Below the pieces are notes generated by a model. That model was given only the letters and a program-made list of their open reading frames with translations, did no database searches and was not told the DNA's origin. From the NCBI RefSeq assembly GCF_016026235.1, contig NZ_CP065613.1: 64,000 nt of DNA, one strand, 5' to 3'. The translations under genes were made by a program, and so were the position numbers. The DNA comes from Escherichia coli. GTDB taxonomy: Bacteria; Pseudomonadota; Gammaproteobacteria; Enterobacterales; Enterobacteriaceae. Shown piece after piece: positions 11,507 to 50,713 of this stretch. The first letter of the stretch is position 1; each line of letters starts with the position of its first letter.

Positions 11507-11582
11507 TCCTCTGTAGTTCAGTCGGTAGAACGGCGGACTGTTAATCCGTATGTCACTGGTTCGAGTCCAGTCAGAGGAGCCA
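11507..11582 (+). tRNA. asnU: tRNA-Asn (GUU)
   Basis: Exact 76-nt tRNA-Asn sequence, identical to the asnW and asnV copies. Confidence 0.95.
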
Positions 11583-13914: not shown

Positions 13915-13990
13915 TCCTCTGTAGTTCAGTCGGTAGAACGGCGGACTGTTAATCCGTATGTCACTGGTTCGAGTCCAGTCAGAGGAGCCA
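13915..13990 (+). tRNA. asnV: tRNA-Asn (GUU)
   Basis: Exact 76-nt tRNA-Asn sequence. Confidence 0.95.
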
Positions 13991-19335: not shown

Positions 19336-19360
19336 CAATACGGCACTCCGTTAACGCTGA

Positions 19361-20871
19361 TATGACTTTCCGTGTCAAACCGGAATCTCTAATTTTGACG
19401 ATTTTCTTTTTAGGTTTAATTCCCTGAGGGCGACGTAGCAGTAAATCCGACGGTGAATCACGCTGATATTCGCGGGTTGGATACCGCATTACAGAGGTCC
19501 GTCATATGAGCCTGCCACTTTCTTACGTCGCGAATCAGCTTTGTTCCGCCGTCGCCAAGCGCTAACGTGGGTTACTCTTGTACCGGGCTACGTCGCCTTC
19601 AGGGAACTGGTTATTCTCATTTTTTATTTGTGACATTGTGGTTGTTGTGCGACAGACATTGCTATTCGGCCCATATCCCAGATAAAACCCGCCAGCTCAC
19701 GTGCAACAGCAACAATTGTAATATTGACATTCTTTCCTTTGGCCTGAAGTTTTCGATACCTCTTACAAAGCCTGAGTTGAGCATCCCATGCTCTGTCAAT
19801 GACGGGGCGGGGTAAATTTTCCTGCCTTTTTGTATTGCCGGACTGATGCGTGCCGGATGACGGTAACTCCACGCTGCCTCGACCAATAGCTTTCTGGCAT
19901 AGCTGTTTCCGGCTTTGGTAATGCTGCCCTGATGTCTGCTTCCACCCGATGAATATTCTGATGGCGTGATACCAAACCATGACATCAGTTGTCGTGGATG
20001 TTCAAAACGGGTCAGATCACCCAGTTCAGAAATTAATCCAACCGCAGTAATAAACTGAATCCCTCGCATGGCTTGCAGCGCCTCTACTACCGGATACAGC
20101 CTCCATTCGGTAACGGCCTCCTTCAGGGCGGATTCCAGCCGTTCACATTGTGCCTGCCGGTCTTCTATTGTACGACGGTGTTCGTCAAAAGCTAATTGTC
20201 GCCAGGGACTTTCGAATGAGTATTTGCTGAGCCAGCGTCGGTGTGCAGGGCCCCAATCTGCTCGCCCGACATAATGGACCCCATGAACCAGAAGAAACGA
20301 TTTCAGACGTTGCCTTGCATGCCGTAAATCATCGCGGGCAGATGCCCATGCCCGGGCCAAATCCCGGAATGCCTCATCTTCAATGCCGGGTACGTAGACA
20401 GCAGAAAGATCTCCTGCACGCAGTGAACGCACAAGTCTGATGGCATCACGGCGATCGGTTTTAACCCGCTCCCCCGGTTTTTTCGGGATAAGTGAGGGGG
20501 CGCAGACCATGCAGTCAAAACCGGATTTCACCAGCCGACGATAAAGTCCATAACCACAGGGCCCCGCTTCATAAACGATACTGACCTGCGATGACTTTGA
20601 CCTGAGACGTTTACAAAGATTCTGAATATCAGTAGGTGATGTGCCAATTTTACCCATCAGTTCAACAGGTTCTGAATTGATAGCATAAGCGACAGTAATC
20701 GATTCTTTGTGAACATCTAACCCGACGTACAATGTGTTATTGTTGTTCATGCTGGCCTCCGTGGTGGAAATACCGGGGTGTAGCAACAGCTCACCCATGC
20801 GGCTCTGACAACGATGTTAACCCGCGTTAAATATCCCACGTTGGCCAGCATCTGTCTCACGGAAAGTCATA
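19361..20871 (-). mobile_element. IS110/IS1111-family insertion sequence (about 1.5 kb) bounded by 14-bp inverted repeats
   Basis: Perfect inverted repeat TATGACTTTCCGTG at 19361-19374 and its reverse complement CACGGAAAGTCATA at 20858-20871 enclose a single transposase gene plus about 290 bp of non-coding sequence on its 3' side. Confidence 0.6.
19662..20750 (-). CDS. IS110-family (DEDD-type) transposase/recombinase
   Basis: Product MNNNNTLYVGLDVHKESI... has the N-terminal DEDD/RuvC-like domain and the C-terminal transposase_20-type domain (…FGITPSEYSSGGSRHQGSITKAGNSYARKLLVEAAW…). Confidence 0.8.
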   Translation of the reverse strand: MNNNNTLYVGLDVHKESITVAYAINSEPVELMGKIGTSPTDIQNLCKRLRSKSSQVSIVYEAGPCGYGLYRRLVKSGFDCMVCAPSLIPKKPGERVKTDRRDAIRLVRSLRAGDLSAVYVPGIEDEAFRDLARAWASARDDLRHARQRLKSFLLVHGVHYVGRADWGPAHRRWLSKYSFESPWRQLAFDEHRRTIEDRQAQCERLESALKEAVTEWRLYPVVEALQAMRGIQFITAVGLISELGDLTRFEHPRQLMSWFGITPSEYSSGGSRHQGSITKAGNSYARKLLVEAAWSYRHPARISPAIQKGRKIYPAPSLTEHGMLNSGFVRGIENFRPKERMSILQLLLLHVSWRVLSGIWAE

Positions 20872-20988
20872 CTGCCTTACCTTTTCTCAGGCTATTTTTG
20901 CTTTTTTTTGCTTTTCCCCGCCACTTTATGGTGATTATCACATCAATATACATCGATAGATATTAACGTAACTGAAGTGAGGTGAAGC

Positions 20989-22203
20989 ATGAAATTTGAA
21001 CGCCATCATGAAATATTGAAACGACTCAGTAAATTCGGTTCTGTAAAAGTATCCGATCTGTCCAATAGCCTCAATGTAACGAAAGAAACTATTCGTTCAG
21101 ATCTTAATGAACTTGCCAGGCTTGGCTATCTGACTCGATGTCATGGCGGTGCTTTTATCGTCCTAGACTCGCTTGATACTATTGCGAAAAATGAAATCGC
21201 TTATGCGCTTGAAAATTATGATACAGCCCAGGGAATAAAAAAAGGCCACTCAACTATGAAAAGTCAAGTATGCGTTATTGGTTCGTTTAATGTTGATATC
21301 ATCAGTTATTTGCCGAGGCTTCCCACTATCGGAGAATCGCTTCTGGCAAGTAATTTTATATTTTCACCGGGGGGAAAAGGCTGTAACCAGGCGCTGGCAG
21401 CAAGCTTTGCCGATACTGATGTTTATTTCATAACAAAAGTAGGTACAGATCACTTTAGTGATTATGCGATCAACTTTATGAATTCGTCTAAGATTTATAA
21501 AAGTATAATTTATCAAACGAAAGAAACGCAAACCGGAACTGCCACGATCCTTGTTAATGAAGGTACTGGCGATAATGTTATTGCGATCTATCCCGGTGCC
21601 AACATGACAATGTCGTCCGATGAAATAACTATTCAGAAAGAAGCGATTATTAATTCTGATGTCATACTTCTGCAGCTCGAAACAAATTATACCGCTCTGC
21701 AACAAGCGATCACATTGGCGCAAAAAAACAGTATCCCGGTCATTATTAACCCGGCACCCTATAATGATATCGTCAACGAACTTATTCAGGATGTTGATTA
21801 TATCACCCCCAATGAAACAGAAGCTGGTTTACTGTCCGGCATAGACGTACACGATCTTGAATCAGCTAAACGAGCTGCAGAAGCTATCCACAATAAAGGG
21901 GTAAAAAACACGGTTATCACGCTCGGTAGCAAGGGCTCGCTCGCATTTGATGGCAAAAAATTCATTCATTCGCCAGCGTTTCCAGCGGTCGTTAAAAATA
22001 CGGCAGGAGCCGGGGATGCGTTTAACGGCTCTCTGGCATCAGGACTTGCGAAAGGAAAATCACTGGAATCAGCACTGTGTTATGCCAGCGCCTTTGCATC
22101 CCTAGCGGTGGAGACAAGCAATGCTTCCGACATGCCTGAACATGAATCTGTGATACATCGAATTCAGAGTATACATTATCAGCAAACTATTTTTACGCAT
22201 TAA
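20989..22203 (+). CDS. Fusion protein: N-terminal DeoR-type HTH domain plus PfkB/ribokinase-family carbohydrate kinase
   Basis: Single 404-codon ORF. Residues 1-60 look like a DeoR HTH (VKVSDLSNSLNVTKETIRSDLNELARLGYLTR). The remainder carries both PfkB signatures (GGKGCNQA and AGAGDAFNG). Confidence 0.7.
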   Translation: MKFERHHEILKRLSKFGSVKVSDLSNSLNVTKETIRSDLNELARLGYLTRCHGGAFIVLDSLDTIAKNEIAYALENYDTAQGIKKGHSTMKSQVCVIGSFNVDIISYLPRLPTIGESLLASNFIFSPGGKGCNQALAASFADTDVYFITKVGTDHFSDYAINFMNSSKIYKSIIYQTKETQTGTATILVNEGTGDNVIAIYPGANMTMSSDEITIQKEAIINSDVILLQLETNYTALQQAITLAQKNSIPVIINPAPYNDIVNELIQDVDYITPNETEAGLLSGIDVHDLESAKRAAEAIHNKGVKNTVITLGSKGSLAFDGKKFIHSPAFPAVVKNTAGAGDAFNGSLASGLAKGKSLESALCYASAFASLAVETSNASDMPEHESVIHRIQSIHYQQTIFTH

Positions 22204-22216
22204 GAAGGGACAGAGA

Positions 22217-22975
22217 ATGAATAACACCAAAAAATCACTAAAAGTGCTCTTTATTGGGGAATCCTGGCATATTCATATGATTCATTCAAAAGGATATGAC
22301 AGTTTTACCTCAAGTAAATATGAAGAAGGTGCGACCTGGTTACTCCAGTGTCTGAAAAATAGTCAGGTAGATGTCACCTATATGCCAGCACATACGGTAC
22401 AAATTGCCTTCCCTGAAGATGTGGCACAGTTAGAACAATATGATGCCATCGTTATTAGTGATATTGGTAGTAATACTTTCCTGCTACAAAATGATACTTT
22501 TTATCAGCTTCGCATAAAACCAAACGCTCTCGAACTGATTAAAGAATATGTGAATAACGGTGGTGGGTTATTGATGATTGGCGGCTATCTCTCATTCATG
22601 GGAATTGAAGCAAAAGCCAATTATAAAAATACAGTTCTGGCTGATGTGCTCCCGGTTACGATGTTAGATGGTGACGATCGTGTCGAAAAACCAGAGGGTG
22701 TTATTGCACAGCCATCACAACCTGAACATCCAGTTATTAAAGGGTTCTCTGAATATCCTTTTTTCCTAGGTTATAACCGGGCGATCGCTAAAGAAAATGC
22801 TGAGGTGGTATTAACAATAAACAACGCTCCATTACTGGTCTTTGGTAACTATCACAACGGGAAAATAGCCTGCTTTATGAGTGACTGTTCACCGCACTGG
22901 GGTACACAGCAGTTTATGTCCTGGCCGTTCTATACCGCGTTGTGGGTAAATATACTGACTCATATTGCAAGATAA
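22217..22975 (+). CDS. Hypothetical protein (possible class-I glutamine-amidotransferase-like / ThuA-like fold)
   Basis: 252-aa ORF 14 bp downstream of the kinase gene. Fold assignment comes only from the overall pattern (VLFIGESWH..., NGGGLLMIGGY) and is weak. Confidence 0.35.
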   Translation: MNNTKKSLKVLFIGESWHIHMIHSKGYDSFTSSKYEEGATWLLQCLKNSQVDVTYMPAHTVQIAFPEDVAQLEQYDAIVISDIGSNTFLLQNDTFYQLRIKPNALELIKEYVNNGGGLLMIGGYLSFMGIEAKANYKNTVLADVLPVTMLDGDDRVEKPEGVIAQPSQPEHPVIKGFSEYPFFLGYNRAIAKENAEVVLTINNAPLLVFGNYHNGKIACFMSDCSPHWGTQQFMSWPFYTALWVNILTHIAR

Positions 22976-23031
22976 TAATAATAATGGGGTAACTCCAGTT
23001 ACTCCATTTACTATAATAGAAGGATTGATGT

Positions 23032-23997
23032 ATGAAAAAGAATAAGTACTCAACTCCCTTATGGATGCTTGCCACGATTCTTGCGGGTATGCTCTCCCCT
23101 ATGCAATCAGCGGTGAATGGTCAATTAGGTCACTGGTTACAGGATGGTAATGCATGCGCAGTTATCTCCTTTGCCAGTGGTTTAGTCGTGATGTTTTTTA
23201 TTATTATGGCGCGAAAAGAAACCCGGCAACAATTTGCGGCAATTCCTTCTCTGATTAAAAACCGAAAAGTTCCTCTCTGGAACTGGTTTGCCGGTCTCTG
23301 TGGAGCGATGGTGGTATTTTCTGAAGGCGCATCAGCCAGCGCACTCGGGGTCGCAACGTTTCAAACCGCACTGATCTCCGCGCTATTGCTGTCTGGTTTA
23401 CTTTGCGATCGCTTTGGTATCGGTGTCGACGAGAAAAAATACTTTACCCCTTATCGCATCATCGGTGCATTATTTGCGGTTATTGCTACGATTTTTGTTG
23501 TGTCACCTCAGTGGCATTCTACCTCTTTCATCTTACTTGCCATTCTTCCGTTCTTAGCTGGTTTGCTTGCAGGATGGCAGCCCGCTGGAAATGCAAAAGT
23601 AGCTGAAGCTACGGGATCCATGCTGGTTTCAATCACCTAGAATTTCATCGTTGGATTTTGTGTTTTAGGCACAGCGCTAGCTATTCGTGTCGCATTAGGG
23701 CACGTCACTGTTCAATTACCAGATGTCTGGTGGATGTATCTTGGCGGCCCGCTTGGACTAATGTCTATCGGTTTAATGGCCATTTTGGTCAGAGGTCTGG
23801 GGTTACTGATGCTGGGGGTTGCTTCAACGGCGGGCCAGTTACTGGGATCAGTATTGATTGACGTATTAATTCCATCGCTGGGCAATAGCGTTTATCTGGT
23901 CACGATCATCGGAACACTGTTTGCACTGGTCGGTGCAATTGTTACCACTATTCCGGAATACAGAACCTCGAAAACAATGAAGAAAATGGAGGTATAA
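23032..23997 (+). pseudogene. DMT-superfamily (tandem DUF606 / YdcZ-like) inner-membrane transporter interrupted by an in-frame amber codon
   Basis: ORFs 23032-23640 and 23734-23997 are in the same frame. The intervening codons read on as membrane-protein sequence (...NFIVGFCVLGTALAIRVALGHVTVQLPDVWW-MYLGGPLGLMSIGL...) once TAG at 23638-23640 is read through. Confidence 0.55.
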
Positions 23998-23999
23998 TC

Positions 24000-25034
24000 A
24001 TGAAAGATTATCTACAAACTGTGACGGGCCCCGTCGCCCGTGAAGATATGGGGCTAACACTTCCTCATGAACATCTGTTCAACGATCTTTCCTCTGTTGT
24101 GGATGCTCCTTGCTATCCTTTTTCACAACGGCTTGTTGATAAAAAAGTCACGGCAGAAATCCAGTGGGCATTAAAACACGATCCTTATTGCTGCGCTGAT
24201 AATATGGACCGCAAACCTATTGAAGATGTGATCTTCGAAATTAATAACTTTATCTCGCTCGGTGGTCGCACCATTGTTGATGCCACAGGGTCTGAGTCTA
24301 TCGGACGAGATGCGCAGGCATTACGAGAAGTCGCATTAAAAACAGGTCTGAATATTGTTGCTTCCTCCGGTCCCTACCTGGAAAAATTTGAAAGCCAGAG
24401 AATTCATAAAACGGTTGATGAACTGGCGACAACGATCGATAAAGAATTGAATCAAGGGATTGGCGATACGGATATTCGTGCCGGAATGATCGGTGAAATA
24501 GGTGTTTCACCGACATTTACCGAAGCCGAGCATAACAGCTTGCGGGCTGCCTCGCTGGCACAGATTAACAATCCTCATGTGGCGATGAATATTCACATGC
24601 CGGGCTGGCTTCGTCGCGGTGATGAAGTACTCGACATTGTGTTAGGTGAAATGGGCGTCTCGCCAAATAAAGTCTCTCTCGCACACTCGGATCCGTCAGG
24701 AAAAGACGTGGCGTATCAGCGGAAAATGCTTGATAGAGGTGTCTGGCTGGAATTCGACATGATTGGCCTAGACATTACCTTCCCGAAAGAGGGAATAGCG
24801 CCAGGGGTGCAGGAGACTGCCGATGCCGTCGCTCATCTCATTGAGTTGGGATACGCCGATCAGCTTGTTCTCAGCCACGATGTCTTCCTTAAACAAATGT
24901 GGGCTAAAAATGGCGGTAATGGCTGGGGATTTGTTCCAGATGTTTTTCTGGCCTATCTGGCGGAGCGCGGCGTCGATAAAACGATCCTCAAAAAACTCTG
25001 TATCGATAATCCCGGACGATTATTGACCGCATAA
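24000..25034 (+). CDS. Phosphotriesterase-family (PTE/Php-like) metal-dependent hydrolase
   Basis: 344-aa product with the N-terminal metal-binding motif TLPHEHL and overall amidohydrolase/PTE layout. Confidence 0.75.
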   Translation: MKDYLQTVTGPVAREDMGLTLPHEHLFNDLSSVVDAPCYPFSQRLVDKKVTAEIQWALKHDPYCCADNMDRKPIEDVIFEINNFISLGGRTIVDATGSESIGRDAQALREVALKTGLNIVASSGPYLEKFESQRIHKTVDELATTIDKELNQGIGDTDIRAGMIGEIGVSPTFTEAEHNSLRAASLAQINNPHVAMNIHMPGWLRRGDEVLDIVLGEMGVSPNKVSLAHSDPSGKDVAYQRKMLDRGVWLEFDMIGLDITFPKEGIAPGVQETADAVAHLIELGYADQLVLSHDVFLKQMWAKNGGNGWGFVPDVFLAYLAERGVDKTILKKLCIDNPGRLLTA

Positions 25035-25073: not shown

Positions 25074-25410
25074 TTAATACCCCGCCGTTAAATCATCCAC
25101 CAAGCGCGAGTCGGATGCGCCGTACAACTCACCATCCGACCCAACCATAATGCTTTGCGTGCTGCCCAACACCTCATTCAGCGCCACTTTCTGACCTTTT
25201 GCTTCCAGCAGCTTGAGCGTATCCGGACTAACCCCTTTTCAACACGCAGCTCGTCCGGCAACCACTGATGGTGGAAACGAGGCGTATTGGTCGCTTCGGC
25301 AACATTCATTCCACAATTGATGCTGTTCACCACCATTTGCAGCACGGTAGTGATGATCCAGCTACCGGTAACAAAGTGAGTACATAAAGGCCATACTGTC
25401 ACGAACAGTG
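25074..25410 (-). pseudogene. 3' remnant of a gamma-glutamyltranspeptidase paralogue, truncated by the ISL3 element
   Basis: Minus-strand translation gives the GGT C-terminus ...IITTVLQMVVNSINCGMNVAEATNTPRFHHQWLPDELRVEKG and ...ALNEVLGSTQSIMVGSDGELYGASDSRLVDDLTAGY with one frameshift. It ends at the ISL3 inverted repeat at 25411. Confidence 0.55.
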
Positions 25411-25685
25411 CAAAAGTGGCTCTTCCGCAACCTAGGTGAAGATTTTCATGCCAGTGGACTCATTACCCTCCGCCTAAGTAGTTCAAGTCCGGCTCGACCA
25501 TACATCTGGCGTATCAGCACCTTCAGGCGATTTACATGACCTTCGACAACACCAGTACTCCAGCGACTGCTGATTGCCTCACGTATAGCCGCAGCATCAG
25601 CTTCCATCCCCGCAGCTACGCACCGAAGTTCTGCTGAGCCGCTTTCGTGGACCCGAGTGAACCAGCTGCTTAGCTGTGATTTATT

Positions 25686-27063
25686 TTAGGTTTTCAGAAT
25701 ACGGTAGAACTCGAGTACCAGTTGCTGCGCTATTTTCAACTCCGGTTCTTTTTCACACATCAGACTAATAAATCGGAAAGCATAATTTTCTTCACCCCTG
25801 ATTATTCTCCGGGGCATCAACCAGCGGCTTACCCGGGACACTGAAGGAAGTCTTGCGGCAGTAGTAACCGGTGGGATCCAGCCTTTACGCCATTTGGCAA
25901 CAGCATCCCTGACGATGGTTTCACTGCCTGTAACCCCCCTGGCCACCATTTCCCGCCATATCCGGCCGGAGTTATAATTACCACATTCTCGTTGCTCTTT
26001 TAACCACTCCCTCCATGGGTCCAGAAGCCCTCGCTTTGGAGGCCTAGTTGACATTTCAGGGAATGTTCCTGAACCCACCCAGCGACTGACTGTCACTCGC
26101 GACAGGCCTGTAATACGGGATATTTCCCTGAAACTACATCCCTTGTTATGCAGGGCCATAACCTCTGTCCAACGCTGATGCCGTTTTTTGCGGGTGTGCT
26201 GTTTAAGGCGTTCCAGACGACGGAGCGATGCTACAGGCACAGATATTTCTGGCTCAGGTGATTTCTTCAGTGATAACTCTCTGACAACAAGACGTATCAG
26301 AGGCATATGTCTGTACATCATTCGTTCAGGCTCATCACCAATATTTTTTAGCAGGTGCCATCGATAGGCCACCTGTCTGGCCTGAGGTGCACCTTCACGT
26401 GCTGCTGTCGCATAGACTCCACTGCGATCACGCGATACAACCTGTATTTCCGGACCTTTTCTGAACCAGGTCGCCAGCGTACGCTGATCACGGCCGGGAA
26501 GCAGGACCAGGGGGCGGTGAGTATCAAGATTGAATATTAACGTACCGTAACGGTGGCCCCAATGCCACGCCCACTCATCAATACCGACATGAGGCGCGCC
26601 TGACTGTTTCGTCTCCGGGGTATTGATAAGCCTGCGAAGAAGAGTATCAGCACTGCAACGGAGACCCGCTGCCGTTGCAGCCCGTTTTCCAGCCTCACCT
26701 CCAGCTATTAATCCCAGTTGACGTTGTTAATTTTGTAACGCCTGTGAAGACTGCTGGTGTGAACTGGCGAAGGGAGCAAGCGACTCGGCAAAAATTTTAC
26801 GTGACAAGCCGGGTTACGGCAGTACCAGTGGCGGACGGAAAATACAAGCCATAGCGTCTGCCCTGAGCAGGGTAGATGCTGTATCCGGCGCCGACGACAA
26901 CTATGAACAGAGTCGCTACGCTTAAAGCATTCAGGACATTGTGCTGTTTTGCGTTTTCCGTGGAGATGGAGGGTTATACCGTCAGAGCTAATAATTTGTC
27001 GACTGCATCGCCATCCGCAAGGTAACTTTAGAAGTGTCTTAAGAGAGTGCATTGCGTTGCCCA
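25686..27063 (-). pseudogene. ISL3-family transposase, frameshifted; its start region is separated from the body by the IS2 insertion
   Basis: N-terminal zf-ISL3-like region (...CPECFKRSDSVHSCRRRRIQHLP...RHWYCRNPAC), a central part in another frame, and a C-terminal part (…YRWHLLKNIGDE…). The first two codons (ATG GGC) lie beyond the IS2, at 28395-28400 on the minus strand. Confidence 0.6.
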
Positions 27064-27155
27064 TTAGACTGGCCCCCTGAATCTCCAGACAACCAATATC
27101 ACTTAAATAAGTGATAGTCTTAATACTAGTTTTTAGACTAGTCATTGGAGAGCAG

Positions 27156-27521
27156 ATGATTGATGTCTTAGGACCGGAGAAACGCAGACGGCGTACTACA
27201 CAGGAAAAGATCGCTATTGTTCAGCAGAGTTTTGAACCGGGAATGACGGTCTCCCTTGTTGCCCGGCAACACGGTGTGGCAGCCAGCCAGTTATTTCTCT
27301 GGCGCAAGCAATACCAGGAGGGAAGTCTTACTGCTGTGGCCGCAGGAGAGCAGGTCGTTCCTGCCTCTGAACTTGCTGCTGCCATGAAGCAGATTAAAGA
27401 ACTCCAGCGCCTGCTCGGCAAAAAAACGATGGAAAATGAACTCCTTAAAGAAGCCGTTGAATACGGGCGTGCAAAAAAGTGGATAGCGCACGCGCCCTTA
27501 TTGCCCGGGGATGGGGAGTAA
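27156..27521 (+). CDS. insC: IS2 OrfA (InsC)
   Basis: [56 protein letters not shown]... recognised as InsC. Confidence 0.85.
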
Positions 27522-28384
27522 GCTTAGTCAGCCGTTGTCTCCGGGTGTCGCGTGCGCAGTTGCACGTAATTCTCAGACGAACCGATAACTGGAAAGATGG
27601 TCGCCGCAGCCGTCACTCAGATGATACGGATGTGCTTCTCCGTATACACCATGTTATCGGAGAGCTGCCCACGTATGGTTATCGTCGGGTATGGGCGCTG
27701 CTTCGCAGACAGGCCGAACTTGATGGTATGCCTGCGATCAATGCCAAACGTGTTTACCGGATCATGCGCCAGAATGCGCTGTTGCTTGAGCGAAAAACCG
27801 CTGTACCGCCATCGAAACGGGCACATACTGGCAAAGTGGCCGTGAAAGAAAGCAATCAACGATGGTGCTCTGACGGGTTCGAGTTCCGCTGTGATAACGG
27901 AGAAAAACTGCGAGTCACGTTCGCGCTGGACTGCTGTGACCGTGAGGCACTGCACTGGGCAGTCACTACGGGCGGCTTCGACAGTGAAACAGTACAGGAC
28001 GTAATGCTGGGAGCGGTGGAACGCCGCTTCGGCAACGAGCTTCCGGCGTCTCCAGTAGAGTGGCTGACGGATAATGGTTCATGCTACCGGGCTAATGAAA
28101 CACGGCAGTTTGCCCGGATGTTGGGGCTTGAACCGAAGAACACGGCGGTGCGGAGTCCGGAGAGTAACGGCATAGCAGAGAGCTTCGTGAAAACGATAAA
28201 GCGTGACTACATCAGTATCATGCCTAAACCAGACGGGTTAACGGCAGCAAAGAACCTTGCAGAGGCGTTCGAGCATTATAACGAATGGCATCCGCATAGT
28301 GCACTGGGTTATCGCTCGCCACGGGAATATCTGCGGCAGCAGGCCAGTAATGGGTTAAGTGATAACAGGTGTCTGGAAATATAG
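27479..28384 (+). CDS. insD: IS2 OrfB (InsD, DDE transposase)
   Basis: 301-aa product overlapping insC in the -1 frame (programmed frameshift arrangement of IS3-family elements). Confidence 0.85.
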
Positions 28385-28518
28385 GGGCAAATCCACCCAT
28401 AACTTAAATCAGCTTAGATTGCGTATTCCGCTCTATTCGATCACGGATTGGCATCGAAGTCCGATCAGCGATTCGCATACATTCGATCAACCGGGAACTT
28501 AACTTTTTCTACCGCTTT

Positions 28519-38905: not shown

Positions 38906-40199
38906 CTGAGGGATCCCCAGAAAATTTAGTAAACCATTATCATATTGGTATACCGTTGCTGTAGAACTTTCAGCCCTGCGTCAAGTGACAGTGTGTTTAG
39001 TATGAGTGGAGAATGTCGAATCACATTCTCCGCCAGTTTTAATAACGAGATGACTCGCCTGTGCTTCACTGTATTTGCCTGATATTTATGATGTATCCCT
39101 TTGTTTTCCAGGCTGAAACCGCTTAACCACATAATGATACTGGCTAATGTTGCGATCAGACTCAATACCGTGACCCGCCCGGATGAATGACTGGCACCAA
39201 ACCGTAATCCAAATCCCCAGCGAGGATTTTTTTCATCCCTGAAATTTTGCTCAATTTGCATTCTACGGCTGTATAATTTCATTACCTGTTTTGGCGAGAA
39301 CTCAGTACTGTTTGTGAAAATAAACCATGGTGATTTCCCGGCAGTACGAGCTTTAGCCGTCACCGATGGTCTGGTTGCTCTTTCCTTCGAGCGTTTAAAT
39401 CAACGACCTTTAGGCTTACTTTTATAAAGATAAAAATGCCCTTCATGTTGTGCATTTTTATCTCGACCCAGCAGGCCTTCACCTAAATAAATTGCTGTCG
39501 TTGATGCTTTTGTGCCTGAGTCCGACACCTTTTCCCAGCCATTACCAACATTGTAATAATGATTGCCCAGTACCCGGCAAATATAGGTCCAGCCACGGGA
39601 GCGGAGCTGTTGGAACCATCGCCCCTGAAAACCGGCATCTGTAATAACAATGACATCAGTCCCGGGGGAAAAGCACTCAGCAAGCGATTCCAGAAAACGC
39701 TCATGTACATCTGCATTCGCTGTCTGTGATGATGGAACGACACAACTCATCAACGGTAAAGAACGCCCGTCACATGCCAGGCTTGCCCGCAAAAGCTGAA
39801 AACGAGAGGCATGATAAGCACTCCAGTCAATGAGTATCACAACACGAGACATTCCCCGCGTAATCTTTTGGGTAATTCGCTGAAAAATGGTGGAAACCTC
39901 ATTTTGCAAATGTCGATTCCCCAACAGTCGATCCACCCGCTTTATTTTGTTTTTAACTGATGCCGTACCGGTTAAATGACGCCCGATACTGGTAAGTGTG
40001 AGGGAAGCGCCATTTATTACAGCATTAGTTGCGTCAATCAGTGATTTTTGACGGTAAAGATGCAAAGGGGCCAGTATGTTGTTAAGGAAATTTTGGCATA
40101 ATGAACGTGCAGGCATAGTGGTGATCTCCTTGAAATTGTTAGCACAATCAATTAGATCACATCTCACTATGCCTGTCTTGTTTTCTGGGGATTCCTCAG
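38906..40199 (-). mobile_element. IS10-like IS4-family insertion sequence inside yeeP
   Basis: Terminal inverted repeats CTGAGGGATCCCCAGAAAA (38906-38924) and CTGAGGAATCCCCAGAAAA (reverse complement of 40181-40199). Flanking direct repeat GGGAGGTCAC at 38896-38905 and 40200-40209. Confidence 0.7.
38926..40116 (-). pseudogene. IS4-family (IS10-like) DDE transposase, in two frames
   Basis: Segments resemble the IS10 transposase (NKIKRVDRLLGNRHL; VIVITDAGFQGRWF; YSRRMQIEQNFRDEKNPRWGFGLRF) but are split between ORFs 39400-40116 and 38926-39363. Confidence 0.7.
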
Positions 40200-41009
40200 G
40201 GGAGGTCACCCCGGTCAGTGATGTTCACGCCGGCACCCGGGAAGTGCGGCGCTTCCGTCTGAGTGGCCACGGTCACAGCATGATTATCACTGACCTGCCC
40301 GGGGTGGGCGAGAGCCGGGACAGGGATGCAGAGTATGAAGCCCTGTACCGTGACATTCTGCCTGAACTTGACCTGGTACTGTGGCTGATTAAAGCCGATG
40401 ACCGTGCCCTGTCTGTGGATGAGTATTTCTGGCGACACATCCTGCACCGGGGACATCAGCAGGTGCTGTTTGTGGTGACGCAGGCCGACAAAACGGAGCC
40501 CTGCCATGAATGGGATATGGCCGGCATTCAGCCTTCTCCCGCACAGGCACAGAACATTCGTGAGAAAACAGATGCGGTATTCCGGCTGTTCCGGCCCGTA
40601 CATCCGGTTGTGGCCGTATCGGCCTGCACCGGCTGGGAACTGGATACGCTGGTCAGTGCGCTCATGACAGCGCTTCCCGACCATGCCGCCAGTCCCCTGA
40701 TGACCCGCCTGCAGGACGAGCTGCGCACGGAATCTGTCCGGTCTCAGGCCCGTGAACAGTTTACCGGTGCGGTGGACCGGATATTTGACACGGCGGAGAG
40801 CGTCTGTATTGCCTCTGTTGCACGCACGGTTCTGCGTGCCGTCCGTGACTCGGTGGTCTCTGTTGCCCGCGCTGTATGGAACTGGATTTTCTTCTGAACA
40901 GTCTGCCAGGGGAAATGCCTGATTACATTGCGTTAACCAACTGAAAACATGATACACCCCCCTCATATCCACCTCTTTCTCTTGCGTGACTGCCTTGCTG
41001 TTAATAGAA

Positions 41010-41060
41010 TAAAACGATCGATAAAACAGGTATCGATCGTTGATATCGATCGTTTATAGT
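41010..41060 (+). promoter_or_regulatory. flu (agn43) phase-variation switch: three GATC Dam sites in the OxyR-binding region
   Basis: GATC at 41016, 41035 and 41048, clustered about 220-250 bp upstream of the flu start codon, as described for the agn43 regulatory region. Confidence 0.6.
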
Positions 41061-43251
41061 GGTTAATGGCCTGCGAAAAGGCAGCTGAATCTCTTCATCA
41101 TGCAGAACGGAATTGCACACAACGGACTGATACTTCTCTGGCGGATGAGAGAGGGGAAGCATTTATGTCCGGGAAAAACCACTTTATCTGACCATGCTGT
41201 TTTGTACCTGCCGGTATCCACATTTGTGGGTACCGGCTTTTTTATTCACCCTCTGTAAGGAAAAGCTGATGAAACGACATCTGAACACCAGCTACAGGCT
41301 GGTATGGAATCACATTACGGGCACCCTGGTGGTGGCTTCCGAACTGGCGCGCTCACGGGGAAAACGCACCGGTGTGGCGGTTGCGCTGTCTCTTGCTGCT
41401 GTCACGTCAGTCCCGGTACTGGCTGCTGACACGGTCGTACAGGCGGGAGAAACCGTGAGCGGCGGAACACTGACAAATCATGACAACCAGATTGTCTTCG
41501 GTACGGCCAACGGAATGACCATCAGTACCGGTCTGGAGTATGGGCCGGATAACGAGGCCAATACCGGCGGACAATGGATACAAAATGGCGGTATCGCCAA
41601 CAACACTACTGTCACCGGTGGTGGTCTTCAGAGAGTGAATGCTGGAGGAAGCGTTTCAGACACGGTTATCAGTGCCGGAGGCGGACAGAGCCTTCAGGGG
41701 CAGGCAGTGAACACCACTCTGAACGGCGGTGAGCAGTGGGTACATGAAGGCGGGATTGCAACGGTTACCGTCATTAATGAGAAGGGCTGGCAGGCCGTCA
41801 AATCCGGCGCAATGGCAACCGACACGGTTGTGAATACCGGCGCGGAAGGGGGACCGGATGCAGAAAATGGTGATACCGGGCAGACCGTCTACGGAGATGC
41901 CGTACGCACCACCATCAATAAAAATGGTCGTCAGATTGTGGCTGCTGAAGGAACGGCAAATACCACTGTGGTTTATGCCGGCGGCGACCAGACTGTACAT
42001 GGTCACGCACTGGATACCACGCTGAATGGGGGGTACCAGTATGTGCACAACGGCGGTACGGCGTCTGGCACTGTTGTAAACAGTGACGGCTGGCAGATTA
42101 TCAAGGAAGGTGGTCTGGCGGATTTCACCACCGTTAACCAGAAAGGCAAACTGCAGGTGAACGCCGGTGGTACCGCCACACATGTCACCCTGAAACAGGG
42201 TGGAGCACTGGTTACCAGTACTGCGGCAACGGTTCTTGGCAGCAACCGTTTGGGCAATTTCACGGTGGAAAACGGTAAGGCTGACGGCGTTGTTCTGGAG
42301 TCCGGCGGTCGCCTAGATGTACTGGAAGGCCATTCAGCGCAGAAAACACGGGTGGATGACGGCGGAACCCTGGCAGTGTCTGCCGGTGGTAAGGCAACAG
42401 GTGTCACCATGACATCCGGTGGTGCCCTGATTGCAGACAGTGGTGCCACTGTTGAGGGGACCAATGCCAGCGGTAAGTTCAGTATTGATGGCATATCCGG
42501 TCAGGCCAGCGGCCTGCTGCTGGAAAATGGCGGCAGCTTTACGGTTAATGCCGGGGGACAGGCCAGCAACACCACTGTCGGACATCGTGGAACACTGATG
42601 CTGGCTGCCGGGGGAAGTCTGAGTGGCAGAACACAGCTCAGTAAAGGCGCCAGCATGGTACTGAATGGTGATGTGGTCAGTACCGGCGATATTGTTAACG
42701 CAGGGGAGATTTACTTTGACAATCAGACAACACCGGATGCCGTACTGAGCCGTGCTGTTGCAAAAGGCAACGCCCCGGTAACGTTCCATAAACTGACAAC
42801 CAGTAACCTCACCGGTCAGGGTGGCACCATCAATATGCGTGTTCGCCTTGATGGCAGCAATGCCTCTGACCAGCTGGTGATTAATGGTGGTCAGGCAACC
42901 GGCAAAACCTGGCTTGCGTTTACAAATGTCGGAAACAGCAACCTCGGGGTGGCAACCACCGGACAGGGTATCCGGGTTGTGGATGCACAGAATGGCGCCA
43001 CCACAGAAGAAGGTGCGTTTGCCCTGAGTCGCCCGCTTCAGGCCGGCGCCTTTAACTACACCCTGAACCGTGACAGCGATGAAGACTGGTACCTGCGCAG
43101 TGAAAATGCTTATCGTGCTGAAGTCCCCCTGTATACATCCATGTTGACACAGGCAATGGACTATGATGCGTATTACCGTGAAGGAGATCGGTGAGTAACA
43201 TCGATGGAGATCGGTTCGTGTCACTTTCACAGAACCGTTTTTAAATTACCT

Positions 43252-44001
43252 TCACTGATCTCCTTCGGTCAACGGAGATTGTATTTTCCGCATTGATTCT
43301 CCTTTAAGTTCAATCTTGATACTGCCATGAACCAGTCGATCTAGGATGGCATCCGCATGTGTGGAGTCTCCGATCATTTTGTACCAGTTTTCCACCGGCA
43401 ACTGGCTCACTACGATGATTGAGCCTCGTTGGTACATCAGATCCACTATTTCCAGCAGGTCGCTACGCTGTTCTGATGAGAGAGGTTCCAGCCCCCAGTC
43501 ATCCAGAAGCAGCAGATCGCTATTATTCAGCCTAGTCAAAAGTTTGCTGTATCTTCCATCAGCATGCCCCTGATAGCACTGTTCCATCAGCGCTTTAAGG
43601 CGATAATAGTAGACCTTGTATCCCTGTCGGCAGGCATTATGACCAAGTGCACATGCCAGGAACGTTTTACCGCTGCCGGTGGCCCCGGTCAGTAAAATAT
43701 TTTGTTTCAGGGTTAACCAGTTTCCCTGACTGAGTGAACGGATGAGGGCCCTGTCCAGCCCTCTATTGTTACGATAATCCAGCTTTGATAACTCAGCATT
43801 AAGTCTGAACCGTGCATGTTTGATCAGACGCTCTGCCTTCCTGTTTTCACGGCAGGTTAGTTCTTCTGCTGTCAGTAATGACAGGCGTTCTTCGAAGCCC
43901 AGCTCCTGGTATGTGCCCGGCTGAGCAAGTTGCTTTTTAAGCGCATCACGGAAGCCGGTGAGTTTAAGTGCGGTCAGTTGTTCGTAAAGATGATTCATCA
44001 T
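43252..44001 (-). CDS. istB: IS21-family helper ATPase IstB
   Basis: Walker A GATGSGKT; 249 aa. Confidence 0.8.
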   Translation of the reverse strand: MMNHLYEQLTALKLTGFRDALKKQLAQPGTYQELGFEERLSLLTAEELTCRENRKAERLIKHARFRLNAELSKLDYRNNRGLDRALIRSLSQGNWLTLKQNILLTGATGSGKTFLACALGHNACRQGYKVYYYRLKALMEQCYQGHADGRYSKLLTRLNNSDLLLLDDWGLEPLSSEQRSDLLEIVDLMYQRGSIIVVSQLPVENWYKMIGDSTHADAILDRLVHGSIKIELKGESMRKIQSPLTEGDQ

Positions 44002-44012
44002 TGGATCCCGTA

Positions 44013-45533
44013 TCAGTGGTAATACTCACTGCCGCGTACGTTTTCGTGTTCCATCGTGGATAACAGATCTGGTTTTGGATCCTGAACAGGTTGTTTATCC
44101 AGACCTTTTTCCAGGATCGATTTAATACCTGACAGACGCCATACCTTTGTTTTCAGAGCTCTTGCACATGCTGCATTAAGTCTGGCTTTACTGTATTTTT
44201 TATGAAGGTTCAGGAGTCCAAGGCAGAAGCGATAGCTTTGTTCCGGATGTGGACGAGAGTTCAGTATATGAAGCACATAACTATGAGTTTCACTGCCTAT
44301 GTGCCCCGCCCATTCCAGAAGACGCTCTGGCGTCCAGGTGGCATGCTGTCGATGAGCTTCAGGCATGTGCTCGTTGCGGGTACTGTAGCCATAAGTACGC
44401 TTGCGCGGGTGCACAGCAACCTCCTGCCCCTGATTGAAGAGTCTTACCAGTTCTCCGGAGATCCATGCTTCCAGTTGCTGGCCTAACAGCGAACATGGAA
44501 CCGAGTAGTAATGTTTGTCGATTTCCACGTGGTAATCGGCATGAACTCTGACTTTCTTCACCAGGGTGTAACTGTAACTGGCTTCAGGAAGAGGCTTCAG
44601 TGCGGGTTTATCAAGCTGGATGAAGAGTTCTGCACGTGAATAACCCAACTTCTGCATTATTTTGTTATTCAGTCTTTCCAGCAACTCCCGAATGCGCTGA
44701 TTAAGCGATGCAAGGCTGTAGAAGATCTCATGCCTGATTCGGGCCATGATCCAGCGTTCAACAACCTGAACGCCAACTTCAGCTTTGGCTTTATCTTTCG
44801 GTTTACGTGGCCGCGCAGGCAAAACTGCGACATTATAATGCTCAAGCATCTGCTGGTAGGTAGGGTTAACGTCAGGATCATACTTACATGCCCTGGATGT
44901 GGCGCTTTTCAGATTGTCCGGAACAACAAGTTCAGGAACGCCACCCAACCACTGGAAGCAGCGAACATGACTCATCACCCAGTCTTCAAGCTGCTGAGAC
45001 CAGGTGGCCTCTGCCCATGTGTAACTTGATGCCCCGAGAACAGCTACGATGACCTGAGCAGTTCTTATTTCTCCGGTCTCAGGGTCGGTAACGCCAACGG
45101 TAGGTCCACAGTAATCAACGAAAAGTTTTTCGCCAGCTTTATGTACCTGACGCATTGATGGTGAAGTGGTTTTGAGCCATTCACGGTACATCCGGCAGTA
45201 ATGGTTATAGCTGTAAAAACCGCCTGGATTACGCTCACAGTATTCTTCCCAGAGTAGCTGCAGCGTCACGCATTTATTACGCAGTTCCCAGTGTACTGTA
45301 GCCCAGTCAGGCAGAGAGTGCTTCTTCATCTTAACCTGGGTCTGAAGGAACGCATGTTTTAGTTTTGTATCATCCCATCCTGTAGGTAAGGGCCACTGCT
45401 TTATGCCAAGTTGAGCCGCCCGATTAGCATATCTGGATACAACGGAAGGGGAGATTGCAAGACTACGACCAATTTGTCGATGGCTGAGTCCAACACCGTA
45501 TTTAAGCCTAAGAATTTCTTTAAGTTTTCTCAT
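44013..45533 (-). CDS. istA: IS21-family transposase IstA
   Basis: HTH plus DDE domain; about 50% similar to the IstA of copy 1. Confidence 0.8.
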   Translation of the reverse strand: MRKLKEILRLKYGVGLSHRQIGRSLAISPSVVSRYANRAAQLGIKQWPLPTGWDDTKLKHAFLQTQVKMKKHSLPDWATVHWELRNKCVTLQLLWEEYCERNPGGFYSYNHYCRMYREWLKTTSPSMRQVHKAGEKLFVDYCGPTVGVTDPETGEIRTAQVIVAVLGASSYTWAEATWSQQLEDWVMSHVRCFQWLGGVPELVVPDNLKSATSRACKYDPDVNPTYQQMLEHYNVAVLPARPRKPKDKAKAEVGVQVVERWIMARIRHEIFYSLASLNQRIRELLERLNNKIMQKLGYSRAELFIQLDKPALKPLPEASYSYTLVKKVRVHADYHVEIDKHYYSVPCSLLGQQLEAWISGELVRLFNQGQEVAVHPRKRTYGYSTRNEHMPEAHRQHATWTPERLLEWAGHIGSETHSYVLHILNSRPHPEQSYRFCLGLLNLHKKYSKARLNAACARALKTKVWRLSGIKSILEKGLDKQPVQDPKPDLLSTMEHENVRGSEYYH

Positions 45534-46724
45534 AGAAATTGGAACTGTTGGCATAGGTATCCTTTACCGGAATGGCAAAAGATACAGATCAACACACCTG
45601 TGAAGTTCCAATAACATTGATGGAGATCACTGAATAACAAAATGAGTCAAAAGTGATCTCCATCGATGTTATTCAGCGATCTGTTCAAATGTTATTACCC
45701 GATCTCGATGGAAGTTATTGAGTGATCTCCTTTCATGAAAATACGCACTATGACCGGATTCTGGCAGGCTCCCGCAGCCATCAGACCGGTGTAAACGGTG
45801 AAAATAACAGCGTCCGTCTCAGCATTCAGGGCGGTCATCTCGGTCACGATAACAACGGCGGTATTGCCCGTGGAGCCACGCCGGAAAGCAGCGGCAGCTA
45901 TGGCTTCGTCCGTCTGGAGGGTGACCTGCTGAGAACAGAGGTTGCCGGTATGTCTCTGACGACAGGGGTGTATGGTGCCGCAGGCCATTCTTCCGTTGAT
46001 GTTAAGGATGATGACGGTTCCCGCGCCGGCACGGTCCGGGATGATGCCGGCAGCCTGGGCGGATACCTGAATCTGACACACACGTCCTCCGGCCTGTGGG
46101 CTGACATTGTGGCACAGGGAACCCGCCACAGCATGAAAGCGTCATCGGACAATAACGACTTCCGCGCCCGGGGCTGGGGCTGGCTGGGCTCACTGGAAAC
46201 CGGTCTGCCCTTCAGTATCACTGACAACCTGATGCTGGAGCCACAACTGCAGTACACCTGGCAGGGGCTCTCCCTGGATGACGGCCAGGATAACGCCGGT
46301 TATGTGAAGTTCGGGCATGGCAGTACACAACATGTGCGTGCCGGTTTCCGTCTGGGCAGCCACAACGATATGACCTTTGGTGAAGGCACCTCATCCCGTG
46401 ACACCCTGCGCGACAGTACAAAACACGGTGTGAGTGAACTGCCTGTGAACTGGTGGGTACAGCCTTCTGTTATCCGCACTTTCAGCTCCCGGGGTGACAT
46501 GAGCATGGGTACAGCCGCCGCCGGCAGTAACATGACGTTCTCACCGTCCCGGAATGGCACGTCACTGGACCTGCAGGCCGGACTGGAAGCCCGTGTCCGG
46601 GAAAATATCACCCTGGGCGTTCAGGCCGGTTATGCCCACAGCGTCAGCGGCAGCAGCGCTGAAGGTTATAACGGTCAGGCCACGCTGAATGTGACTTTCT
46701 GATAATCAGGTCACTCTCCTTCAG

Positions 46725-46751
46725 GCCCCGGTCATCATGACCGGGGCTTTT
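46725..46751 (+). terminator. Terminator after flu
   Basis: Hairpin ccccggtcatcatgaccgggg followed by cttttt. Confidence 0.45.
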
Positions 46752-47085
46752 TACTTTCAGGGAGCAACAGATATGCCGGGTTGTACATCACGTTTATTGC
46801 CCGAAGGCCCTTTCTCACGCGAACAGGCTGTTGCCGTCAAAACAGCTTACCGCAATGTGTTTACTGAAGATGACTAGGGAACATATTCCCGGCTGGTTAT
46901 CCGTAATGCTGAAGGTCAGTTGCGCTGGTGATGCCGGAACACAGCTTAATACTCAGCTCGCCAGTTAAGGGCTTCTCAGACAATAAACGTCATTCATTTC
47001 ATCTGTCAGGCCGCGTCTTCTCCGGGAGACGTGGCTTTTTCATTTATTACACCAGTAAATCTTAACCACCGATAAGGAGCAAATT

Positions 47086-47904
47086 ATGCGACTAGCCAGT
47101 CGTTTTGGTTATACGAACCAGATACGCCGTGACCGTCCGCTGACACACGAAGAACTGATGCACTATGTTCCCAGTATTTTCGGTGAAGACCGGCATACTT
47201 CCCGCAGTAAACGATATGCGTACATTCCCACCATCACCGTACTGGAAAGCCTGCAGCGGGAAGGCTTTCAGCCATTCTTCGCCTGCCAGACCCGTGTGCG
47301 CGACCCGGGCCGCCGGGGATACACAAAACATATGCTGCGTCTGCGGCGGGCCGGAGAGATAAACGGAGAACATGTCCCTGAAATCATTCTGCTCAACTCC
47401 CATGACGGTACCTCCAGCTACCAGATGCTGCCGGGTTACTTCAGGTTCGTCTGTCAGAACGGATGCGTCTGTGGTCAGTCTCTGGGGGAAGTGCGTGTTC
47501 CGCACCGGGGAAATGTGGTGGAGAAAGTTATCGAAGGGGCTTACGAGGTGGTGGGCGTGTTTGACCGGATAGAGGAGAAGCGTGATGCCATGCAGTCGCT
47601 GGTCCTGCCGCCACCGGCACGCCAGGCGCTGGCACAGGCGGCACTGACTTACCGTTATGGTGACGAACATCAGCCCGTCACCACCGCCGACATTCTGACG
47701 CCACGACGCCGGGAGGATTACGGTAAGGACCTGTGGAGTGCTTATCAGACCATCCAGGAGAATATGCTGAAAGGCGGGATTTCCGGTCGCAGTGCAAAAG
47801 GAAAACGTATCCATACCCGGGCCATTCACAGCATTGATACCGACATTAAGCTCAATCGCGCATTGTGGGTGATGGCAGAAACGATGCTGGAGAGCCTGCG
47901 CTGA
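47086..47904 (+). CDS. DUF932-family protein (YfjQ/YafZ-like)
   Basis: 272-aa product MRLASRFGYTNQIRRDRPLTHEELMHYVPSIFGEDRHTSRS...; recognised from memory as the CP4-type DUF932 family. Confidence 0.65.
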   Translation: MRLASRFGYTNQIRRDRPLTHEELMHYVPSIFGEDRHTSRSKRYAYIPTITVLESLQREGFQPFFACQTRVRDPGRRGYTKHMLRLRRAGEINGEHVPEIILLNSHDGTSSYQMLPGYFRFVCQNGCVCGQSLGEVRVPHRGNVVEKVIEGAYEVVGVFDRIEEKRDAMQSLVLPPPARQALAQAALTYRYGDEHQPVTTADILTPRRREDYGKDLWSAYQTIQENMLKGGISGRSAKGKRIHTRAIHSIDTDIKLNRALWVMAETMLESLR

Positions 47905-47985
47905 TGCCGTTTCCCTGAGTGAGGGAATCATTCAGCTTTCGTTCCTGAAAAACACACATTTATTTGTTATTTAAGGAGTTATCTC

Positions 47986-48465
47986 ATGAAAAGCGTTTCT
48001 CAGAATACCCCCACAATTTATTCAGCTACAACACCAGAGAATAATCCGCCTCAGTTTGTTGCCAGCCTCGTCCCTGATGAACAGCGCATCAGCTTCTGGC
48101 CGCAGCACTTTGGCCTCATTCCACAGTGGGTGACCCTGGAGCCCCGTGTCTTCGGCTGGATGGACCGTCTGTGCGAAGACTACTGCGGTGGTATCTGGAA
48201 TCTGTACACCCTGAACAACGGCGGGGCATTTATGGCACCCGAACCGGATGACGATGATGACGAAACATGGGTACTGTTCAATGCCATGAACGGTAACCGC
48301 GCTGAAATGAGCCCGGAAGCCGCCGGTATTGCCGCCTGTCTGATGACGTACAGTCATCATGCCTGTCGTATGGAGAATTATGCCATGACGGTCCATTATT
48401 ACCGGTTGCGGGATTACGCCCTGCAGCATCCGGAATGCAGCGCCATTATGCGCATCATCGACTGA
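47986..48465 (+). CDS. Antirestriction protein (KlcA/ArdB-like, YfjX/YafX family)
   Basis: 159-aa acidic protein (…APEPDDDDDETWVLFNAMNG…) in the position and of the size typical for CP4 antirestriction proteins. Confidence 0.6.
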   Translation: MKSVSQNTPTIYSATTPENNPPQFVASLVPDEQRISFWPQHFGLIPQWVTLEPRVFGWMDRLCEDYCGGIWNLYTLNNGGAFMAPEPDDDDDETWVLFNAMNGNRAEMSPEAAGIAACLMTYSHHACRMENYAMTVHYYRLRDYALQHPECSAIMRIID

Positions 48466-48480
48466 ATGGAGAGAAGCACA

Positions 48481-48957
48481 ATGCAACAACTTTCCTTTCT
48501 GCCCGGAGAGATGACGCCCGGCGAGCGCAGCCTCATTCAACGGGCCCTGAAAACCCTGGACCGCCATCTTCATGAACCCGGCGTGGCCTTCACCTCCACC
48601 CGGGCGGCACGGGAATGGCTGATTCTGAACATGGCGGGACTGGAGCGTGAAGAGTTCCGGGTGCTGTATCTGAACAACCAGAATCAGCTGATTGCCGGTG
48701 AAACCCTCTTCACCGGCACCATCAACCGCACGGAAGTCCATCCCCGGGAAGTGATTAAACGCGCCCTGTACCACAATGCCGCTGCCGTGGTACTGGCACA
48801 CAATCACCCGTCCGGTGAAGTCACACCCAGTAAGGCAGACCGGCTTATCACCGAACGTCTGGTACAGGCACTGGGCCTGGTGGATATCCGGGTGCCGGAC
48901 CATCTGATAGTCGGTGGCAACCAGGTTTTCTCCTTTGCCGAACATGGTCTGCTTTAA
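48481..48957 (+). CDS. yeeS: RadC-like JAB-domain protein
   Basis: JAMM-like motif HNHPSGEVTPSKAD and RadC-family layout. Confidence 0.75.
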   Translation: MQQLSFLPGEMTPGERSLIQRALKTLDRHLHEPGVAFTSTRAAREWLILNMAGLEREEFRVLYLNNQNQLIAGETLFTGTINRTEVHPREVIKRALYHNAAAVVLAHNHPSGEVTPSKADRLITERLVQALGLVDIRVPDHLIVGGNQVFSFAEHGLL

Positions 48958-49019
48958 CCCGTCACAACCACATCACACCTGTTTTCACTTTTATCTTCTG
49001 TCTTCAGAGGTATCCCATT

Positions 49020-49241
49020 ATGAAAATTATCACCCGTGGTGAAGCCATGCGTATTCACCAACAACATCCGACATCCCGTCTTTTTCCGTTCTGTACCGGC
49101 AAATACCGCTGGCACGGCAGTGCTGAAGCGTATACCGGTCGTGAAGTGCAGGATATTCCCGGTGTGCTGGCCGTGTTTGCAGAACGCCGTAAGGACAGTT
49201 TTGGTCCGTATGTCCGGCTGATGAGCGTCACCCTGAACTGA
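49020..49241 (+). CDS. yeeT: DUF987 protein YeeT
   Basis: 73-aa product MKIITRGEAMRIHQQHPTSRLFPFCTGKYRWHG...; recognised as YeeT. Confidence 0.8.
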   Translation: MKIITRGEAMRIHQQHPTSRLFPFCTGKYRWHGSAEAYTGREVQDIPGVLAVFAERRKDSFGPYVRLMSVTLN

Positions 49242-49403
49242 TGTTCCGTCACCCGGAAAACGAGTACGACTGGCTGAGCTCAGACGCCGCTGTGGATGAG
49301 GTCCTGCTCATCAACGAATACACCTTTACCGAAGCCGGTCTGCGCGCCGGCTGACCCGTCATCGTTAAACTATCATTCACCGATTTTCTGTGAGGATTTT
49401 ATC

Positions 49404-49772
49404 GTGTCAGACACACTTTCCGGGACAACGCATCCCGATGACAATGACGACCATCCCTGGTGGGGACTACCCTGCACAGTGACGCCCTGTTTCGGCGCCC
49501 GTCTGGTGCAGGAGGGTAACCGGTTGCATTACCTTGCCGACCGTGCCGGTATCAGAGGCCGGTTCAGAGATGCGGATGCGTACCCTCTGGACCAGGCCTT
49601 TCCGCTGCTGATGAAACAACTGAAATTAATGCTCACCAGTGGTGAACTGAATCCCCGCCATCAGCATACCGTGACACTGTATGCGAAGGGGCTGACCTGT
49701 GAAGCCGACACCCTCGGCTCCTGTGGTTACGTTTATCTGGCTGTTTATCCGACACCTGAAACGAAAAAGTAA
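49404..49772 (+). CDS. cbeA: Type IV antitoxin CbeA (YeeU)
   Basis: 122-aa product with GTG start (VSDTLSGTTHPDDNDDHPWWGLPCTVTPCFGARLVQEGNRLHYLADRAG...). Confidence 0.85.
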   Translation: MSDTLSGTTHPDDNDDHPWWGLPCTVTPCFGARLVQEGNRLHYLADRAGIRGRFRDADAYPLDQAFPLLMKQLKLMLTSGELNPRHQHTVTLYAKGLTCEADTLGSCGYVYLAVYPTPETKK

Positions 49773-49861
49773 ACCACCAGAATAACCTTCTGCTCCGGCC
49801 TGGTGTTTTCACCACGCCACTGTCCCATTTTTTATCTCTGCATATCAGGAAAATCTTCAGT

Positions 49862-50239
49862 ATGAAAACATTACCCGACACGCATGTACGGGAGGTATCG
49901 TGCTGCCCGTCTCTCGTCACCATCTGGCAGACACTGCTCACCCGACTGCTGGACCAGCACTACGGCCTTACGCTGAATGACACACCGTTCGCTGATGAAC
50001 GTGTGATTGAACAGCATATTGAGGCAGGCATTTCACTGTGTGACGCGGTGAACTTTCTCGTTGTAAAATACGCGCTGGTACGTACCGACCAGTCGGGATT
50101 CAGCGCCTGTACCCACTCTCAGTTAATAAACAGCATCGATATCCTCCGAGCTCGCCGGGCAACAGGCCTGATGACCCGCGACAATTACAGAACGGTAAAT
50201 AACATTACCCTGGGGAAGCATCCGGAGGCGAAACGATGA
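49862..50239 (+). CDS. cbtA: Type IV toxin CbtA (YeeV), cytoskeleton-targeting
   Basis: 125-aa product MKTLPDTHVREVSCCPSLVTIWQTLLTRLLDQHYGLTLNDTPF... Confidence 0.85.
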   Translation: MKTLPDTHVREVSCCPSLVTIWQTLLTRLLDQHYGLTLNDTPFADERVIEQHIEAGISLCDAVNFLVVKYALVRTDQSGFSACTHSQLINSIDILRARRATGLMTRDNYRTVNNITLGKHPEAKR

Positions 50240-50439: not shown

Positions 50440-50713
50440 GACAATGCAGTGATACAGGGTATAGTGCCATTAACCACAGAAACAGCACTGTTGTCCTGTA
50501 TTAAGCAGGCAAGAGAAGATGTCCTTACCCTGCGCCATCTGCAGCTTCTGCACCAGAACCAGTGAATCTCACTCAACAGGCTTCATTTCCCCTGACGCCA
50601 GCCTGAATACAGCTGGCGTTTTCATTTATAAACAGAAAGGAAAACCGATAATAATGGAATGGACGCCCCTACCATGAAGCAACGGTAGGATATTACTGAT
50701 AAACCTTCCAGTG

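Follow-up and report, generated by a model that had tools for sequence, protein, structure and literature searches.

The gene at 23032-23997 (+) of the window, by which we mean the whole 64,000-nucleotide stretch of Escherichia coli chromosomal DNA that was analysed, is very probably (we put the probability at about 0.93) a pseudogene that arose from one nonsense mutation, TGG to TAG, in a gene for a 321-amino-acid, ten-helix DMT transporter. A nonsense mutation was one of the explanations offered for the internal amber codon in the initial annotation, which was made from the sequence before any comparison, and it is the one that the other genomes bear out: intact alleles have TGG at this position, and TAG is found only on one haplotype. 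The pseudogene is an ordinary one and its status is already known, as it is flagged in RefSeq; the identical sequence is annotated by RefSeq/PGAP as 'DMT family transporter', pseudogene, with an 'internal stop', in O104:H4 FDAARGOS_349, in O145:H28 RM13516 and in NCTC9008. A literature search on the locus (GI-CFT073-cobU; DUF606/YdcZ) found nothing on this specific locus.

Reading frame and residual ORFs

The features of the disrupted gene are the following.

23032-23997 (+): disrupted gene, a probable pseudogene, for a fused two-domain DMT_YdcZ (DUF606) transporter (PF04657, E = 9.8e-46; the intact allele encodes 321 aa)
23638-23640 (+): the amber stop (TAG) that interrupts the frame at codon 203, derived by a G-to-A change at 23639 from an ancestral TGG (Trp203)
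23032-23640 (+): residual 5' ORF of 202 aa with an ATG start, containing the whole of domain 1 (helices 1-5) and, beyond it, helix 6 and the first part of helix 7
23734-23997 (+): residual 3' ORF of 87 aa, containing only the end of domain 2 (profile positions 69-139 of 140)

Translation from 23032 gives 322 codons in one frame, ending at the terminal TAA of the transporter frame (23995-23997), with the TAG at 23638-23640 as the sole internal stop. The two residual ORFs had been described as in-frame pieces joined by hydrophobic sequence, and this is what the translation gives: they share a frame (their starts are offset by 702 nt, i.e. 234 × 3) and the sequence between them is of the hydrophobic membrane type (NFIVGFCVLGTALAIRVALGHVTVQLPDVWW). 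The 202-residue product is represented in the output of gene callers by a cluster (P0114) of 685 member sequences. For the purposes of annotation, neither the 202-residue nor the 87-residue ORF should be listed as a separate protein.

The first in-frame start codon past the TAG is the ATG at 23734, 94 nt downstream, and it had been suggested that the downstream part of the protein could still be made from it. The context of this codon is tctggtggATG, in which the only SD-like sequence (GGTGG) abuts the start with no spacer. Since the product would comprise half of domain 2 only and the start has no spaced SD, a useful product from this ATG is unlikely.

Domain architecture and predicted fold

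The joined translation matches the Pfam family PF04657 (DMT_YdcZ, formerly DUF606) with a score of 155.9 bits against a gathering cut-off of 24. The match falls in two stretches and is far beyond chance, so the tandem DUF606-type transporter proposed at the outset is confirmed. In the intact allele, domain 1 comprises residues 10-154 and domain 2 comprises residues ∼169-303, and an internal repeat aligns residues 6-160 with residues 162-310. When the two parts are scanned separately against PF04657, the part before the stop scores 111.4 bits and the part after it 38.8 bits; the latter resumes the profile at position 37 and follows it to position 139 (of 140). The break sits 42 codons into the second domain, the domain boundary being near residue 160.

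AlphaFold2 models the intact allele as an all-helical membrane protein with ten helices (mean pLDDT of 79, pTM of 0.74). Residue 203 falls within the stretch 197-221, which forms helix 2 of the second repeat. According to Foldseek, the best structural matches of this model are all ten-helix DMT transporters, matched over the full length of the model with a TM-score of ∼0.6 and a probability of 1.00: the CMP-sialic acid transporter (PDB code 6oh3), PfCRT (6ukj), LicB (7paf), a triose-phosphate translocator (5y78), SLC35B1 and YddG (5i20). The sequence identity to these solved transporters is just 11-19%, and searching the PDB by sequence alone returned no relative of the transporter. The predicted fold supports a DMT architecture with two inverted five-helix repeats.

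RF1, the amber/ochre-specific release factor, would end translation at codon 203. The truncated product would retain the first repeat (domain 1) and helix 6 with only a stub of helix 7, losing the rest of that helix and everything through helix 10. In the DMT fold the substrate pathway is formed by both inverted five-helix repeats, and the fragment is therefore most likely inactive.

YdcZ of E. coli K-12 has a single domain and ∼149 amino acids; in comparison, the gene described here is the fused form, cut within its second domain in the window. The DUF606 family comprises homodimers, heterodimers encoded by paired genes, and fusions, according to the summary in PMC3962082 of the work of Lolkema et al. 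(2008), and the intact allele resembles the fused two-domain subclass of that summary, with two tandem PF04657 domains and a predicted ten helices. The split heterodimer pairs resemble the window in that two adjacent ORFs on the same strand show similarity to PF04657. In the pairs, however, the break lies between the domains, leaving a whole five-helix domain in each gene, whereas the break in the window lies inside domain 2.

The ancestral codon and conservation of Trp203

Codon 203 was compared base by base with the Klebsiella orthologue and with six intact E. coli alleles (CFT073, strain 2/0, VTB96933v, FWSEC0003, IMT16316 and EC05, each of 966 nt and encoding 321 aa), and it is TGG in all of them. 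The intact alleles are annotated 'DMT family transporter' under accessions WP_000739817 (WP_000739817.1; CFT073 and strain 2/0), WP_000739816.1 and WP_000739825.1. They share the locus, the neighbouring genes and the 966-nt length with the window and differ from it at 3-10 of the 966 nt, with TGG where the window has TAG. The lesion is thus a G-to-A transition at 23639 (W203*), and the earlier guess that the TAG replaces a sense codon such as TGG proved to be correct.

A database search using the intact allele as the query found full-length homologues in Citrobacter, Salmonella, Klebsiella, Pectobacterium, Proteus, Anaerobiospirillum, Bifidobacterium and several lactobacilli. Of 108 full-length homologues compared (300-345 aa, 64-99% identity), 107 carry Trp203, which lies within the near-invariant motif GSMLVSITWNFIVGF; the residue is also invariant in an alignment of 34 sequences (A1).

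Allele frequency and haplotype

The 1.2-kb region was matched in 2,123 of 5,426 complete E. coli genomes at 95-100% identity. Using a 59-mer centred on codon 203 as a probe, the locus was found in 2,037 of the 5,426 genomes (2,038 matching records). Exact matches to the 59-mer comprise 599 records with TAG and 1,428 with TGG; the remaining 11 are of other types, one of them being EC05, which has TGG together with a nearby SNP and is annotated as intact. The TAG allele is present in ∼29% of the locus-bearing genomes, O104:H4 and O145:H28 included, and the TAG/TGG site could serve as a lineage marker.

Four TAG carriers (the window, O104:H4, O145:H28 and NCTC9008) are identical across the 966 nt. 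On their haplotype two private SNPs are linked to the TAG, T23508 (synonymous) and G23888 (T286S). These two and the TAG itself are the only sites, three of 966, that separate it from its closest intact counterpart, which is shared by CFT073 and strain 2/0. The identity of the four carriers indicates that the TAG had a single mutational origin and then spread. The mutation would have arisen once, on a haplotype near that of CFT073, and would have reached ∼600 of the 5,426 complete E. coli genomes by descent or recombination. The haplotype is nearly free of further damage; downstream of the stop, T286S, at a variable position, is the sole additional non-synonymous change. The mutation had been called recent, which holds in a relative sense given the three differences from the nearest intact allele, but the allele has already reached ∼29% of the locus carriers.

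Alternative explanations for the amber codon

The frequency of the TAG allele is compatible with neutrality and clonal expansion. It is improbable, in our view, that the allele represents a selected loss, in which a knockout of uptake was favoured (for example in O104:H4 and O145:H28), or that the 202-residue fragment has retained part of its activity. If the fragment were active, the allele would be a natural experiment in which a fused DUF606 protein reverts towards the single-domain state.

We give very little credence to a functional split, in which the 202-residue fragment would act as a homodimer, in the manner of the single-domain YdcZ, or would pair with the 87-residue fragment made from the ATG at 23734. 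Such an arrangement draws on the complete first domain of the 202-residue fragment and on the natural occurrence of homodimeric, paired-gene and fused forms in the DUF606 family (Lolkema et al., 2008, as given in PMC3962082). The site of the break argues against it, as the TAG falls in helix 7, at about position 36 of the 140 in the domain 2 profile, and not at the boundary near residue 160; the 87-residue ORF has neither helices 6-7 nor a spaced SD, and covers profile positions 69-139 only. The distribution of charge in domain 1 points the same way: all 13 Lys and Arg residues are confined to the N-terminus and to every other loop (residues 61-79 and 127-142), a bias that by the positive-inside rule would be expected of a half held in one orientation within an antiparallel pair rather than of a dual-topology homodimer. 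The initial annotation had raised the case of other genomes in which the orthologue is naturally encoded by two separate genes, divided by a stop at this position; none was found, all of the orthologues examined being single fused genes of 314-342 aa. A natural two-gene arrangement was also considered and is ruled out by the lengths of the homologues, by the gene contexts in three distant taxa and by the position of the break in the profile.

Suppression of the stop codon, which had also been proposed, would require the TAG to be read through, either by a suppressor tRNA encoded elsewhere or by near-cognate decoding, giving a full-length functional transporter, possibly at a regulated low level. 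The frame past the TAG is indeed still open and nearly unchanged, and E. coli has a low basal level of amber read-through, with amber suppressors such as supE in laboratory strains. We nevertheless consider this to be highly unlikely, as the stop occurs on one haplotype only and in place of an almost invariant Trp; it is not conserved in any orthologue examined, and the 1,428 E. coli records noted above have TGG. The common amber suppressors insert Gln, Tyr or Ser, not Trp, so that one of these residues would occupy position 203, at which almost no substitution is tolerated. The only tRNA genes in the 64-kb window are three for tRNA-Asn, and none has a CUA anticodon; the RNA fold predicted for 23620-23740, around and downstream of the stop, is no better than that of shuffled sequence (z = -0.9). 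No chromosomal gene of E. coli is known to use programmed amber read-through. Programmed suppression is thus without support here; trace basal read-through, which would not be a designed feature, may occur.

A sequencing or assembly error, with TGG in the true genome and an intact gene, would suit a lesion limited to a single base but is in practice excluded, as the same TAG 59-mer occurs in 599 independently sequenced complete-genome records and the two private SNPs linked to it in the four carriers mark a real haplotype.

The four-gene operon

The nonsense pseudogene is the third gene of a tightly packed four-gene accessory operon, the other members of which are as follows.

20989-22203 (+): first gene, intact, 404 aa; DeoR-type HTH fused to a PfkB/ribokinase-like sugar kinase (PF08220 and PF00294)
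22217-22975 (+): GATase1_like protein, intact, 252 aa (PF07090, E = 1e-111)
24000-25034 (+): phosphotriesterase-family (PTE/Php-like) hydrolase, intact, 344 aa (PF02126, E = 8.8e-47)

Against the NCBIfam ribokinase model TIGR02152 the kinase scores 284 bits, just below the cut-off of 299.65; NCBIfam has no model for either the transporter or the GATase1_like protein. The ATG of the PTE gene lies 2 nt past the natural TAA of the transporter, and its SD (GGAGG) is inside the 3' end of the transporter gene. As this part of the transporter is now untranslated, the TAG, 360 nt upstream, may lower the expression of the PTE gene through lost coupling or Rho polarity.

In Klebsiella the same four genes are found together, with the transporter as one fused gene. 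The GATase1_like-transporter pair is also kept in Lentilactobacillus and Bifidobacterium, where it is accompanied by a LacI regulator and a CBAH-family hydrolase, and there too the transporter is fused. The GATase1_like protein (PF07090) and the fused DMT_YdcZ transporter (22217-23997 in the window) make up an uncharacterised two-gene module that is found from Enterobacterales to Bifidobacterium and Lentilactobacillus (loci L009, L011 and L013). The uncharacterised operon, and above all this pair, is a more interesting target than the pseudogene itself.

In E. coli the operon lies in an IS-littered island adjoining cobUST, flanked by IS66, ggt and ISL3 remnants, and the transporter is not the only one of its genes to be broken. 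The PfkB gene has an internal stop or a frameshift in four strains with TGG at codon 203 (loci L003, L004, L005 and L007), and IS3 insertions interrupt the PTE gene of IMT16316 (L005) and the GATase gene of NCTC9008, which is a TAG carrier. CFT073 retains an intact copy of each of the four genes. The independent breakage fits an operon that is decaying piecemeal, with different genes lost in different lineages, and on which selection would be weak or absent across much of E. coli.

The window differs from O104:H4 and O145:H28 at four sites in the 4.2-kb operon (20975, 21536, 22844 and 24736). Three of the four differences are non-synonymous (residues of the window given first): Gly versus Glu at PfkB 183, Gly versus Ser at GATase 210 and Arg versus Lys at PTE 246. 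These few sites give a hint of relaxed constraint on the neighbouring genes in the window strain.

Genomic surroundings

Just upstream of the operon, an intact-looking ORF of 378 aa at 19662-20798 (-) resembles an IS110-family transposase by sequence. It lies within an insertion (19359-20875) that seems to be particular to the window strain, similarity to the other E. coli loci resuming at 20876. Downstream of the operon, correspondence with annotated genomes identifies a gamma-glutamyltransferase remnant at ∼25074-25366 (-), frameshifted and with its N-terminus missing. It is followed by an ISL3-family transposase pseudogene with an internal stop at ∼25446-27065 (-) and then by an IS3-like element at ∼27060-28401; these three are further signs of the decay of the island. 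For positions 17000-41000 the best match among the complete E. coli genomes is NCTC9008, with 99.2% identity; no genome covers more than 88% of this stretch, and the lineage of the window is IS-rich.

The three tRNA-Asn (GTT) genes of the window, at 9683-9758 (-), 11507-11582 (+) and 13915-13990 (+), are interleaved with yeeO, cbl and nac, upstream of ldtA-cobTSU. This layout of tRNA-Asn, yeeO, cbl and nac is usual in E. coli, and the region is a classic site for the integration of genomic islands. Farther downstream, similarity to NCTC9008 places an AIDA/Ag43-like autotransporter gene, interrupted by an IS21-family element (istA/istB), at 40196-47907, and CP4-44-like genes at ∼48000-52000, namely an antirestriction gene, yeeS, yeeT and a YeeU/CbtA toxin-antitoxin pair.
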